Shown here: positions 1 through 54,753 of the stretch, piece by piece | Numbering within the stretch: the first letter of the stretch is position 1 | How the letters are laid out: each line of letters begins with the position of its first letter | Origin: Massalongia carnosa | Lineage: Eukaryota | Assembly (NCBI GenBank): GCA_965645245.1 | Contig: OZ287084.1 | Location: 496,001-560,000 of the forward strand | Reading direction: 5' to 3' | DNA length: 64,000 nt | Notes under the pieces: model-generated | Database searches by the model: none | Seen by the model: only the letters and a program-made list of their open reading frames with translations | What the model was told of the DNA's origin: nothing | Translations under genes and position numbers: made by a program

Positions 1-683
1 CTCGATGCATACCGTTGACAGAACGTTGCGGGCCTTGAGGGGAACGCCTTCATCCTGGGATACTGTCAGCCTACGAACAGGATGGGCTTGTGGAGCGTGG
101 AATACCTGAACCTGTTTGTGCCTGAATGTGGTATCAATGTTGCGATTCTTCAGAGGGACTCCTTCGCCCTTGAGGAATGTCAATGATTACGGATACTGGG
201 GCTTGGGGTCGAGGGTTCAGTTACCTGGACCCACTCGTGGCTGGAGATGGTGTCGACATTGCGGTTATTTAGGGGAACACCTTCATCCTTCGAAAAGGAT
301 TAGCACCTTTGATAGTGGGTCAAGGCCTGGTATATTGGATTACCTGAACCCACTCATGAGCGGAGGTGCTGTCCACGTCACGCTGCTTAAGGGGAACGCC
401 TTCGTCCTTTAAGAAGGATAAGTGTTTTTGCCATCGAGCTAATAGTTGGCTGAATTAATTACCTGTACCCATTCGTGGGTGGAGGTGGAATCAGCGTCCC
501 GGGATTTCAACTTAATACCCTCGTCCTACGAGGGATGTTAGCCAGGACTATGATAAAACCTTTTTAGCTTTGAAGTTACTTGAACTCGCTCATGGGTAGA
601 AATGCTGTCGACATCGCGTTGAACGAAGCGCTTGGCGAAGCCTGAAGTGGGCGGGAAAGCATTAGCGGATCCATCTCCAGCAT
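1..683 (-). CDS. Tandem-exon repeat region of a putative Kex2-processed repeat protein (peptide precursor); runs off the window start
   Basis: Minus-strand exons 683-580, 525-463, 406-344, 287-225, 168-106 and 54-13 are joined by canonical GT..AG introns of 51-56 nt. Spliced translation: ...FAKRFVQRDVDSISTHERVQ|DEGIKLKSRDADSTSTHEWVQ|DEGVPLKQRDVDSTSAHEWVQ|DEGVPLNNRNVDTISSHEWVQ|GEGVPLKNRNIDTTFRHKQVQ|DEGVPLKARNVLST|, with no stops. Confidence 0.8.
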
Positions 684-941
684 CTCAAAAACATATCATT
701 GGCATATATATGAGAATAAAGGCTTGGTTTATTAAGGAGAGCAGATTGAAAGCATATAGACAGAAACAGAAAGAAATTTATCTGGTCGCCTATCCTCCCA
801 ACCGGCAAAAAGAAATACATGAAGACAAAAAAAAATCCCGTCCAAATCTCCCTTGAACAGCGACCTAAAAGGGACCGCAAGACTGAGTTAAATAAGCTTG
901 AGAGTCTTCTTCTTTTCGCAGTTTCAAACTATGGGGCGTAG

Positions 942-1755
942 TTAAACATAAGCTTGGGTGAGAGCAAGTGGCTCCACGAGCTCGGTGATGGTGGTGATTG
1001 CAGGTTGTTGCGTCGCGATAACAGTGACAGTCATCCCTGGTGGCTGCGCTGTATACACATCTAAGGTCATTGTGGTGGTTCTGGTCGATGTTAGTGTGCT
1101 ATGGAGGGTTGTTGTCGGCTGCCGCAATGAGACTGGCAAAGGCAGAAAGTGCGTTTGATTCCGGAGAGGCTGAAGAGCTTGCTGCGTTGTTTGATTCTTT
1201 GCTGTTTGCTGCTATGTCAGAAAAGATAGCTCTACCTCAAGAAGAGAGAGTTCATTTGCCTACCATGGATACAGTATTGTACGCTAAGCTCTAGATTCCT
1301 GCAATCCGAGTTGATAGATGGGTTCAGGCTCCGGAACTCGTTGAGGGTAATTGGTCCTTGAGACAGCGCCTCTTCGCAAGCTTTTTCATGTTTCTGGTTG
1401 ATCCAGTAGATCTTCTGGCAGTTCGGGATTTTTATTTCGGAGGAGTTGGTGCTTGTATCTGAGAAACCATCAAGGTGGTTGGGGCTGAGATGAAGAGTAT
1501 CGCAAGCTCGCTGATCCAAGTACAAGAGCGAGAGCATTTGCTCGAAGATCTAAAACCAACGGCAATGGCCAGAGATGGCCTGGAAAAGCAAAAAGAACTC
1601 GCTGCAATGGAGATAATCTAAAACTACATCAGGAGAGACTTACGTCCTTGGAGTGGGCCAGTCACGGCGGCAGCAATGGCACCTGGAAGCGCAATGGCAC
1701 CTGGAAGCGCAATGGCAATAGAGCCGAGCACGGTGAGGATAACGGACAACTTCAT
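942..1755 (-). CDS. Secreted LysM-domain protein (signal peptide, fungal Cys-type LysM, Thr-rich linker); probably the 5' part of the repeat gene at 1-683
   Basis: ATG at 1755 gives MKLSVILTVLGSIAIALPGAIALPGAIAAAVTGPLQG followed by a gtaagt donor. Exon 1458-1264 encodes PNCQKIYWINQKHEKACEEALSQGPITLNEFRSLNPSINSDCRNLELSVQYCIH, which fits the fungal LysM pattern C..Y...C....IT...F..xNP....C.NL.....YC. The next exon is Thr-rich and ends at TAA 942. A probable 5' UTR intron lies at about 1957-1780. Confidence 0.7.
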
Positions 1756-18253: not shown

Positions 18254-18470
18254 TAGGTAGGTAGGTAGGTAGGTAGGTAGGTAGGTAGGTATATGAAATC
18301 GAACCAAACCATACCATACCATACCATGTCAAATAGAATCTAGTCGAAGCAGAGAAGAGCAGAGCAGAGCAGAGCAGAGCAGAGCAGAGCAGAGCAGAGC
18401 AGAGCAGGGCAGGGCAGGGCAGGGCAGGGCAGGGCAGGGCAGGGCAGAGCAGGGCAGAGCAGAGCAGAAC
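18254..18470. repeat. Compound microsatellite (TAGG)n, (CCATA)n, (AGAGC/AGGGC)n
   Basis: About 9 TAGG units at 18254-18291, 3-4 CCATA units at about 18309-18327, and more than 20 pentamers at about 18356-18468. Confidence 0.95.
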
Positions 18471-19856
18471 AAAGCATGGTTAAATCCTTCACTACTTCCC
18501 CAATCTCCCTATCTCTCTATCAACCAACCAACCTCCCCCAACATCCCAAATCCCGAGCCGGAAAAGAACGACCCTCTTACACCCCCAAATACATACACAT
18601 AAACACGGCTAGTTATATTTACACATGTAGTCTGTAGCTTATGTTGCTGTTGTCCATCTCCCTCCCTCTTCTCCTCCTCTGCCGGCCCCCCTCCCTCTAA
18701 TCATCAACAGACCACTTCGTAGCTCTCCCCCCATCCTTGCCCCATGGGAAGCAAGCGGCATTCGCTCACTCAATTGCTTGCCTTCCCCCTTTGCCCCTTT
18801 TTTATAAAAATAGACGAGAAAAAGAAAGAAAAAAGAAAGTAGAAGGAGACGAGAGAAAGAAGGAAAAATCCCCCCAGAGCAAGAAGGATGCGCGAGAGAA
18901 CAGAAAGGAGGGGTCTATCTGTGGATATCATGAGAAGAGGACAACGCTATGCAACGCAAGCAACAAAATGCAAAGCAAAGACTCGAATGAACGAATGGGC
19001 AGCGAAAAATCCTTTCCAGATTCTAAGGGGGTTGTTTCCCGCAAAGCAAGCAAAGCAAGACAACAAAAAGAGGCCCTCCCATATTTGGCCTCCCCCCCCT
19101 TCTCCATCTCCCTTCCTCAGGTAACTAGCTACAAGCCAAATCCTCCACGCAGAAAGCCATCCCTTCCCGCCCTCCCTTTGGGCCGCGGGGCCCTATCCGT
19201 CGCACAGTGAAAGTCAAATAGCGAAAAAGCTAGTCCTCCACCCTCCACCCCCCCCTTTCAAGCATAGTCCATGGTCATAAATGAGCAACTAAAAATGCCA
19301 TAAAGCAGGCGGAGATAAGGCCATTGGACTTTTTGAAATAATTATGTGATAATCCGCTCTTTTTTGGGCGCGGTGAGTAAAGTAAGATTTAGATCCTTCC
19401 TGGCACCTTGAAGTATTACTCACTGCCTAGAAAATGGGTTCTAGGGAGAATGTGAGGGAAGGTCCACGGCAAGCACTTCAGAATTTAATGGTATTGGTGG
19501 AGAAAATGTGGCGAGATAAGATGTGGGTTTCTTTCCAGCATCGGCGATATATATGAAAGGTTAAAATCCTCATTGCAGGCAGAGGGCCAAGATCGGATCC
19601 ACCGGTCATGCATAAAGAACAGCCCCGGGGTAAAGGACGGGTCGAATCGTAGGGCTATTCGGGTCATGATTATCGTTACCAAAAGATTGCAAGACCTGCA
19701 AAAGCTCCGTCCAGGGTACTGTCCATCCAGGCTTTGCTAGCCAACGGAACTCATAACCCCTTTATCCATAAAAACACCTCGCATGTAATGAAAAGACTCT
19801 TGGCTCCAATATGGCTGAGCGCCTTCTCTTGCCGCTTGACGTGACTTGCAAGCCAC

Positions 19857-49037: not shown

Positions 49038-52000
49038 CGAGTAGATTCGGGACAGACCCCATCTGGCAGACCCCTCGTAAAGTTCTACTGCTTATTAGGA
49101 CTAGCTTAAGCCTCACCCTCACACTAAATTAACAGTCCATCTAGGTACTAATGCAACGTCCCCCCGCAAGCTTCATATACCCAGTCAATTGCAACATTAC
49201 TGTAGCCAATTCAAACATCACACGTAGCTAGCCTCGGATTATTTGATGAGGGGTAATCATCCCATATGCCCAACCATTATCATCTTTTCGATTATATTCT
49301 TTCTCTCAGTCATGGCCTCAGCCTTATTTTCCCTAGATCAGAAAATTGGAAATGCCAAGGCCCTTCTCCCTCCAGCCCATTGTCTCCCCACTCAAGAGGG
49401 AGAAGGTTTCGCTAGCTGGGAGGAGGGAAAGGCTCGCCTTCAGGACTATGCTTTTACCCAGGGGTTCGCGATAGTCATAGAATCTTTTCAGAAAACACGG
49501 GGAGTCATGTTATTAGAATGCACACGTCACCATCGAAAAGAGAGAAGAAACACCAGAAAACTGGTTGAGACAGACCGCCAACGAAAGAGTACGAAAGTTT
49601 CGTTCAATAACTGCAAATATAGAGTCCGCCTGAGAAAAAAAAAGATGAGATCTGGAGCTTAGCACTCACCAACCCCGTATACAATCATTCCATGGCCAAT
49701 GACCCTTTCAGTTTCAAAGAACATCATAATAGGGACCCCGACCGAGCAGAAACCCTAGACCATGCGAAAGGTCTTCGTGATTCATGTACTAAATATACCC
49801 AAGCCTCGAGAACTTTGCGTGTTCGGGGACTTCGTCTTTCGAAGAATGATTATTATAACCTAGTTCGATCTGAAGGGAGTCATACACCCGCAGAGGAAAT
49901 GGATTATACACTTGGATGCTTGAAAGAGGGAGGGTTTCACGTGCGCTGTTTGGAGAAATATATAGTTGAAAACAACATACGGCAGTGACGTGTTGTGGAG
50001 TTATTTTTCTTCTGCTGTTATATAACTTCCGAATCGGCGGAGTGCTTCACTTTTCTACTTGATTGTATGAAGGACTTGATCTTTCATGACGAATGCCCTG
50101 GTCCTAGAGTCATACTTGGAGACTTTGCAGCTGGGTTATCGGAGGCGATGCGGAGAAAAAGGCTTCAGACAGTAGATGCTGACGCTGCATTGGGCATGGC
50201 ATGGCAAGTCTCTCAATCGATGATCGCGGGCGGTTATGACTGCGCTTTGCAGCTTTGCACCTGGCATGCAGCCGAAGCCATTAAGAAACGACTCATCAAG
50301 ACGGGGACCTATCCAGTAGAGAATCGGAAAAAAATTGATGGCGTTGATCTGGGCGTGGATAAAGTCTCCTACTATCGAACAATTGAATGAAAGAAGGAGG
50401 ACGTTGTTGAACAAATTGCACGATTCAGAAAAGGTATGTTAATGTGTAGAAGTTGAGGTTTAACCCTGAGGTTAAACCTGATTGTTTTAGAGTTATATTG
50501 AGCTTGATTTATTGATCTAAGCTCTTGGTGATTGGAGAATGATTTACGTTTTAGATAGACACTTGGAATTGACGTGATGATTGCTTGCATTGAAAGGATT
50601 TTCCCCAATTCTCTCATGGAATGTTGGGATTCGGTTAATAGATTACCGTATCCGAGCCACATATCGCTTACTGCTTGACCACTAAATTGGCTGACAATTT
50701 AGGATTAATTTTCGAGAGGACTACGGCTAATAGATATGTTTTAATTTGCAGGATTATCTTATAAATTTTATAATCGCCAAGAAGCTCACTTTGTGCACGC
50801 GCATACCAATCAGCTCCCTAATTTAGGTGCGAATAGCACTCAGCGGGTTGAAGGCCTACATCCTATGATCAAAAGTGTGACCAATAGGCATACTCCCATG
50901 AGAAAATCCGTTCAGAAAATCTGTGATGAGGTTAAGGAGAAGCAGATTGAATATGAAACCATGATCAATCAGCAACGAATCAATAATCCTCGATTGATGG
51001 ATAGGTTTGCATTCAGACATCTCACGGGAAAAATAACTCATCAAGCTATTGACGTCGTCTCCAGAGAGTTGGATGGGGCCAAAAAGCTAGCTGAAGAGTT
51101 CAATCAGCGAGTCTATTCAGGATTGACCTCACCAATTGAACAAACAGGCGAGAGTTGTGTATATGATTGTCAACTGCCTTTGCGTTTTGGTCTCCCGTGC
51201 AAGTGTTGGTTGTATTCTTGCGTCGTTGACGTCATTCGCATCCCCTTCTCTCTCATTCATCCTCGCTGGTTTTTCGATGGTCCGCCTGCTGTTTTCTCGT
51301 GGCGAATGACTTTCGATTCTGCCTTAAGCTTTGAAGACATGCTTAGAAACGCTGCGGGAGAGGGAGGGGCGGAGCCGGAAGAGGATAAAGAAGAGGATAA
51401 GGAGGAGGTATGGGGGGAGGGTGAGGATGAGATGGAAGAGGAGGATGAGGAGGAGATGGAAGAGGAGGATGAGCAGGAGGTGAGAAGAAGGAAAGGCGAA
51501 GGGGGAGAAGTGAAGAAGGACGGTGATAGATATCGCCGCGGTGGGGTTGATATGATGCAATCTGCAGCATTTGAGTCAATGGATTTGCACAAATCAATGG
51601 AAAAGTCACATCGAGATGAGGAGTATGCTCGAGCATACGTAGCAAACAGCGCCAAATTCAATCAACAATGGCTGGAAAGGGAGTCGGCTAGATCTCTTAT
51701 CCCAACAACTTTCCATGATGAAATCCGACCGAAGGAAAACCTCAGGTGGAAAAAGGGAGGAAGTCGTCGGCGTGCTTACACTGGCCGCGAGGCAGCTGAG
51801 GCAGATGAGGCCAATCAGCGACGTGCTAGACGTAGGGACTCGATTGAACAAGGGAGAAGGCGACGGCATGATAAACTGCGTGAAAGCGATGAAAACGAGA
51901 GTGTGATTAGCGATGGTAAAAACTCACGATATAAGCAAATCGACGCAGCGCGGCTAACATATGATGTAGTAGATTTGACTGAAGATGCGGTCATCGTCTC

Positions 52001-54507: not shown

Positions 54508-54753
54508 TTAAGGCACGATGTGTCTCGCATACACATTGAGTAGCAAGAATAGGCGTGGATATCCCTTGGCAGCGAATGACAGGCCGACCTGGCGCTGATT
54601 TCCTGGCGCTGATTTCCTGGCGCTGATTTCCTGGCGCTGACTTCCTGGCGCTGATTTCTTGTTTACCGTATCCTCATTGGTCAAGCAGAATTCATGTATG
54701 ATATTTCGGATTTTGATCGGTAGATTAAGGAGCAAGGAGGTGGAAGTAGCCAT
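54508..54753 (-). pseudogene. N-terminal fragment of an F-box-like protein
   Basis: MATSTSLLLNLPIKIRNIIHEFCL resembles the fungal LLxLPxEIRxxIYxxxL motif. The frame is broken by the 14-bp array and no long ORF follows. Confidence 0.45.
54588..54657. repeat. 14-bp tandem repeat x5 (CCTGGCGCTGAYTT)
   Basis: Five adjacent copies with one mismatch. Confidence 0.95.

Follow-up and report, generated by a model that had tools for sequence, protein, structure and literature searches.

KEPs, the fungal KEX2-processed repeat proteins, are defined by sites of the KR, RR, or KK type (PMC6339444, PMC9769878). The screen described in PMC6339444 took annotated proteins with a signal peptide and cut them at KR, RR, and KK, its pipeline calling for four or more fragments between dibasic sites. 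DUF3328 genes that are linked to KEPs lie 3.09 genes away on average (PMC7329392). Kex2 sites as given in PMC8528282 have an invariant Arg at P1, prefer an aliphatic residue at P4, and are tolerant at P2, with LxxR named among them; in the K2PP proteins of that work, the site frees a single folded effector from its pro-domain. In Ustilago maydis Rsp1, putative Kex2 motifs stand between eleven imperfect repeats, which are hydrophilic and 18 or 21 aa long (PMC4617103); the peptides of Rep1 are amphipathic and 35-53 aa long. In the SP7-like proteins of Rhizophagus, the repeats are likewise hydrophilic and imperfect, contain a conserved island, and end in a degenerate copy, and SP7 itself has five splice versions (PMC4617103/PMC11333574).

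The locus described here lies in a window of 64,000 nucleotides (C18:496001-560000) from a genome of 52.16 Mb in 25 contigs, treated here as that of an ascomycete; a PPR protein encoded near the array is closest to clusters made up mostly of Ascomycota. It resembles KEPs in its tandem, imperfect short repeats, in the Arg processing site that each of them has, and in a leading KR (PMC6339444, PMC7329392, PMC9769878); it also has no DUF3328 neighbor, as is the case for 78% of KEPs (PMC7329392). It differs from them in that its sites are of a single-Arg, hydrophobic-x-x-R type, KR occurring just once in the window copy, that no signal peptide was found in frame (945-580), and that each repeat is its own symmetric exon. 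Set against the published definition, the internal repeats are there (four full and two partial 21-aa units), and the dibasic sites are limited to the one KR before the array, with KR in none of the six window units and one of four homologous units. Its predicted product would behave like a KEP and yet fall outside published KEP membership on dibasic sites. A screen of the PMC6339444 type would miss it because of the single-Arg sites and because no full-length annotated product was found. The unit words do not occur in the text of the PMC6339444 supplement (4 files, 89,120 characters; a weak absence, since the peptide tables are perhaps not included), in the text of the PMC7329392 supplement (3 files, 732,332 characters), or in the other paper text searched.

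With the K2PP proteins, the array shares the invariant P1 Arg, the aliphatic P4, and the tolerant P2; the difference is that the array site recurs in every repeat. By analogy, the closest described look-alike is Rsp1, although Rsp1, Rep1, and Hum3 are basidiomycete proteins with no sequence relation to the array shown, and the long amphipathic Rep1 peptides set Rep1 further apart. The likeness to the SP7-like proteins lies in their repeats and degenerate last unit. Those proteins, however, are made with a signal peptide and work in plant nuclei without being cut, and their Y[KR]Rx[AP]x[AP] motif does not occur in the array. Precursors of alpha-pheromones likewise have Trp-containing repeats cut by Kex2, and Ste2 is present in this genome; in contrast to them, the array is without Ste13 dipeptide runs or dibasic sites, and its units are longer and more variable. 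Among the titles listed by literature searches, none described a fungal precursor in which every repeat has its own exon. The combination of single-Arg sites and symmetric micro-exons is a notable feature of the array and keeps it out of both annotations and dibasic screens.

The array is on the minus strand and consists of four full 63-nt exons at 525-463, 406-344, 287-225, and 168-106, whose lower bounds (463, 344, 225, and 106) follow an exact period of 119 bp, flanked by two partial units, one ending at 580 and the other spanning 54-13. The introns between units are 54, 56, 56, 56, and 51 nt long; all five are GT..AG and in phase 0, and four of the five contain a branch-like motif. In the direction of reading, the first partial unit occupies a 62-nt exon (580..641) that is entered in phase 1 and left in phase 0. 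This exon contains the KR (633) as well as the first of the hydrophobic-x-x-R sites, scores +4.5 bits in the array frame, and aligns in ungapped register with a relative, P0004. A 54-nt intron (526..579; GT..TAG, branch GCTAAC, two in-frame stops) leads to exon B (463..525; 21 aa with LKSR and HEWVQ, coding score of +5.4 bits). The 56-nt intron at 407..462 (GT..AAG) is the one in which no canonical branch motif was found, which makes the following exon C (344..406; 21 aa with LKQR and HEWVQ, +6.0 bits) a candidate for skipping. Exon D (225..287; 21 aa with LNNR and HEWVQ, +1.9 bits) lies between two further 56-nt GT..AAG introns, one at 288..343 with branch GCTAAT and one at 169..224 with the branch-like TTGAC. 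Exon E (106..168; 21 aa) has LKNR and a diverged core, HKQVQ, and scores +0.9 bits. The 51-nt intron behind it (55..105; GT..CAG, branch GCTGAC) is in frame and free of stops, so that its retention would preserve the reading frame. The last unit, F (13..54; LKAR, +3.7 bits), is degenerate, and positions 1..12 are the start of a probable 62-nt last intron whose TACTAAC branch lies 32 bases past the window edge. The 3' end has two options: unit F is spliced from the GTATGC donor (position 12) to a putative final exon, 36 or 48 codons long and beyond the window (L001), or it is read on for 20 codons to a stop that lies just past the window edge.

These coordinates and introns agree with the earlier note, which had described four phase-0 exons of 63 nt spaced at 119 bp with two partial units, five LxxR words, and a KR upstream of the array (at 633), all of which are present. 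Three of its statements hold in part. The 119-bp period runs across the four full exons, but the partial units fall outside that spacing. HEWVQ, which had been presented as conserved, is found in exons B, C, and D, whereas the fourth full exon has HKQVQ and the first partial unit HERVQ. The introns have diverged as claimed but are still related, the three of 56 nt showing 38-49% ungapped identity to one another; exon and intron thus arose by joint duplication as one cassette. Autocorrelation at lag 119 was 0.428, compared to a maximum of 0.334 over 500 shuffles. DNA contigs from three of four runs cross the array without any difference, and these runs may be the assembly's own source. Pattern and protein searches showed the array to be a single locus in the genome. 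Four one-mismatch pattern matches elsewhere, considered as possible paralogues, do not encode the unit.

Differences among the exons fall mainly at third codon positions. In all six exon pairs, synonymous sites are near saturation (pS of 0.67-0.89) and pN is only 0.16-0.33, which bears out the selection at the peptide level that had been claimed from synonymous codon changes. A coding model, for which 138 kb of long ORFs from this genome served as training data, ranked the array frame first in all five of exons B-F, with modest margins of +0.9 to +6.0 bits. A self-trained splice-site model, built on 36 noisy introns, was discarded except for the positions and phases that it listed. A non-coding RNA was rejected, as the two Rfam matches had E values of 0.59 and 0.92, far below gathering. 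Judged from its sequence, the array is a real, coding, exon-modular repeat under purifying selection, with splicing predicted from the intron signals; a loss that happened recently could not be dated from the pN/pS values, which record earlier selection.

A profile search over 1.84 billion representatives (E up to 0.001) gave five matches, three of which contain the unit: P0001 (2.9e-21), P0002 (6.5e-9), and P0004 (2.1e-5). The same three were the relatives found among 3631 candidates in a second search. The two other matches, P0003 (a cyanobacterial Ig-domain protein) and P0005 (a coral complement-receptor-like protein), were set aside because both are long repeat proteins that lack the unit and are unrelated; P0006 and P0007 are near-identical to P0004 and were excluded from unit counts. 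Units B-D are 71-86% identical to P0001. P0001, P0002, and P0004 are Logan/ENA gene calls that run straight through introns. The residue after the final Q of the unit is V in four of four cases, as a GT donor (GTN codon) would read, and the residue before the unit is K or Q in four of four, as an AAG or CAG acceptor would read, which gives independent support for the exon borders. The unit is present in other organisms as well, the three relatives showing identical exon borders. No full-length homolog of 92-2000 aa was found among 325 candidates, which is weak evidence for absence. None of 12 pattern matches in metagenome contigs was confirmed, a two-exon pattern had no matches there, and the unit was unmatched in Pfam, PDB sequences, and the ESM Atlas.

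Aligning the six window units with five homologous ones gave 11 rows. Arg at P1 is invariant in the 10 rows that have the column, and P4 is L, I, or F in 11/11 rows, compared to 20.8% for the 2743 Arg residues in the genome's long ORFs; since the rows are homologous, these counts are not independent of one another. P2 is the most variable column, with six residues across 10 rows, and is basic (KR) at one of the 10 sites, in a unit of P0001. Every unit thus carries an extended Kex2 motif, with aliphatic P4 and Arg P1. The H, V, Q, and G columns are as invariant as the Arg, and splice signals may be what keeps the Q and D in place where exons begin and end. After the Arg comes D or N, then V in eight of 10 rows, A in one, and I in one. 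Pro stands two residues after the invariant Gly in 8/9 rows. Full units have a net charge of -2 to -3, except for unit E (+2), and the 114 residues of the six units include no Tyr and no Cys. The predicted cut falls after residue 9 of the exon, and each peptide would therefore be encoded by two adjoining exons. Of the earlier idea of one exon per peptide, one exon per repeat stands; the predicted peptide is instead the back of one exon joined to the front of the next.

The 5' end is less clear-cut. The array had been taken to start at 683, where the acceptor is GAG; we favor instead the more canonical acceptor at 641 (phase 1), which has a branch motif at 666 and CAG at 642. No in-frame ATG with a signal peptide was found between 945 and 580. 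The only in-frame ATGs in this interval are at 705 and 699 and are followed by a stop at 687, which excludes read-through from 705; the ATGs at 820 and 755 belong to other frames. No 60-nt window in 930-690 exceeded +1.8 bits in any frame, and an in-frame hydrophobic stretch at 777-691, considered as a signal peptide, was equaled by 24 of 155 T-rich background windows. An AATAAA at 733 is consistent with the LysM-like gene upstream having its 3' end here. Positions 642..705 would hold a candidate leaderless first exon of four codons from ATG 705 and, after it, an intron of 51 nt whose GTTTTT donor (692) is poor. With this arrangement it is consistent that M and C of P0004 lie at the same ungapped distances from KR as positions 705 and 693 of the window; no signal peptide follows the corresponding Met of P0004. 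The sole nearby exon able to lend the array a leader, on a speculative reading, is the signal-peptide-like first exon of the LysM-like gene (1644..1755, minus strand; phase-1 GTAAGT donor, +13.3 bits, 12-aa hydropathy of 2.6). Phase-1 donors at 1643 and 1263 match the phase of 641 and would need introns of ~1000 or 620 nt.

The LysM-like gene (1755-945, minus strand) begins with that signal-peptide-like exon, which contains an 18-bp duplication (1673-1717). Its Cys-spaced exon at ~1458-1264 has no Pfam LysM match, matches a LysM gene on C4 at E 0.0017, and gave no homolog of at least 166 aa among 27 candidates. Ala/Ser-rich and Ser/Thr-rich stretches follow in two frames with no clean join near 1100, and this is possibly a worn LysM gene. 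The C4 gene (L020, C4:1752507-1755656) is a multi-exon LysM gene with Ser/Thr linkers and a Pfam LysM match at E 1.3e-7, and lies ~40 kb from the Kex2-type gene. On the other side, the array gene is convergent with a ribosomal L10e gene (L002:6088-7276 and L003), past which lie a coiled-coil-like gene without a Pfam match, a P450 gene, a calponin-homology/EF-hand gene, and a short-chain dehydrogenase gene.

A domain scan of 73 neighborhood and unit sequences (ORFs with a minimum length of 90-110 aa, in a region reaching 18 kb downstream and 22 kb upstream) matched ribosomal L10e, calponin-homology/EF-hand, P450, short-chain dehydrogenase, WD40, PPR, S4, and kinase domains; UstYa, tyrosinase, peptidase, methyltransferase, HeLo, and NLR domains were not among its matches. 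Genome-wide, UstYa/DUF3328 had at least 30 exon matches, those listed being on C1-C3, C6-C9, C15, C16, and C19 and none on C18, the array contig. Two of the C7 matches score identically and may be a duplication. There are probably many dikaritin-type clusters elsewhere in the genome. Further along the window are back-to-back microsatellites at 18254-18476 (TAGG x9.5, ACCAT x5, and AGCAG x25.8), a purine-rich GGAGGATGA-type array at 51377-51520, and a 14-bp tandem repeat in five copies (96%) at 54588-54658. One pattern match on C2 (L007, C2:53466-56482) was a chance match inside a stop-broken frame that presumably resembles a DDE transposase of the Tc1/mariner type.

We favor, with a probability of about 0.5, a KEP-like precursor of linear, acidic peptides of ~20 aa that are cut at single-Arg sites. 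At the DNA level, this ascomycete gene is intron-rich and has expanded as a 119-bp cassette, one exon together with its intron, was copied in tandem; its splicing is predicted. Its product would enter the secretory pathway, perhaps by means of a distant or shared first exon. Kex2, for which a single gene of the Kex2 type with a P-domain was found in the genome, would then cleave behind the single KR and, in each hydrophobic-x-x-R site, behind the Arg, which Kex1 would presumably remove. The products would be some five peptides, linear, unmodified, and for the most part acidic, with H-E-W-V-Q at their center. Their most likely role, in our inference, is that of secreted signaling or surface peptides of the Rsp1/Rep1 or pheromone-like kind and not that of a cyclized toxin. 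The Kex2-processed secreted peptide proposed earlier thus draws on the coding repeat, the Kex2-like site, the KR in P0001, and the Kex2-type gene; its secretion is the weaker part, as no in-frame signal peptide was located.

A real gene whose product stays uncut by Kex2, as a leaderless or intact hydrophilic repeat protein from Met 705 with an SP7-like action, seems unlikely to us but deserves consideration, since Met 705 and the donor-bearing Cys codon are spaced from KR as in P0004, where there is no hydrophobic leader either, and since the binding of SP7-like proteins rises with repeat number (PMC11333574). The M/C match may reflect neutral similarity in the DNA of closely related organisms, however, the donor at 692 is poor, and the hydrophobic P4 and P1 Arg, the KR variant, and the leading KR form the pattern of a secretory pro-protein. 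Damage at the 5' end could account for the same region in another way: the family would be real and this copy decaying, with 945-690 being the 3' end of the LysM-like gene. The missing coding signal in 930-690, the AATAAA at 733, the in-frame stop at 687, the divergence of the outer units, and the worn look of the upstream gene itself, with frames not joining near 1100 and no Pfam LysM match, would all fit. Against decay, six donors and five internal acceptors are intact, every exon is open, and units B-D keep their 71-86% identity to P0001; we hold this reading to be a little less likely still.

It is improbable that the array encodes the alpha-type precursor of a mating pheromone for which the Ste2 of this genome would be the receptor. 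There is a single Ste2 gene, the units contain Trp and G-x-P, and genes of pheromones are without DUF3328 neighbors in PMC7329392. Two pattern searches gave no canonical gene elsewhere (2 matches versus 2 in the control, and 6 versus 11), the patterns being narrow and exact-match only; the two matches were translated and are not pheromones, and the six were judged by their matched letters alone. The array has no XA/XP-type Ste13 dipeptide run after the Arg, D-A occurring in one window unit only, and its sites are not dibasic; there is no Pfam pheromone match, and ~20 aa sits at the top of the 9-24 range given in PMC6339444. A dikaritin-type RiPP precursor with cores cyclized by tailoring enzymes, as the earlier note had also entertained, is somewhat less probable still. 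In its favor, the architecture is repetitive, UstYa matches number at least 30 in the genome, genes for a P450 and for a short-chain dehydrogenase are located 8-17 kb downstream, and some DUF3328-linked KEP types have W or HH in place of Y (PMC7329392). Dikaritins are recognized by UstYa within a few genes and a Tyr core, whereas none of the 30 UstYa matches listed is on C18, the scanned neighborhood has no tyrosinase, peptidase, or methyltransferase domain, Tyr and Cys are both absent from the units, and the ribosomal L10e and calponin-homology genes separate the array from the P450. As a functional amyloid of the HET-s type, which likewise has 21-aa repeats, the array is barely credible despite its equal repeat length, invariant Gly, and beta-prone V, T, and S residues: a Pro follows two residues past the Gly in nearly all rows, HRAMs consist of a pair of 21-aa repeats with a loop between them, carried by a HeLo-type protein or found beside an NLR (PMC4518210), an arrangement that the array does not have, and there is neither a HeLo/NLR domain in the gene or scanned neighborhood nor a HET-s match in Pfam.

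Beyond the favored KEP-like precursor, it is conceivable but unlikely that the array represents a hidden class of precursors with single-Arg LxxR cuts and symmetric micro-exons, in which exon skipping alters the number and mix of peptides. Since the cut falls inside the exon, skipping would create chimeric peptides from non-adjacent exons. In the boldest form of this reading, the array would take the signal peptide of the LysM-like gene by alternative splicing (1643 or 1263 to 641), and if this is true, one locus yields either a LysM-like protein or a peptide cocktail. The conserved HEWVQ core lends itself directly to peptidomics. If the product is processed, published KEP catalogs undercount fungal secreted peptides, and more such precursors would come to light in a simple search for micro-exons that are periodic, in phase 0, and contain LxxR.
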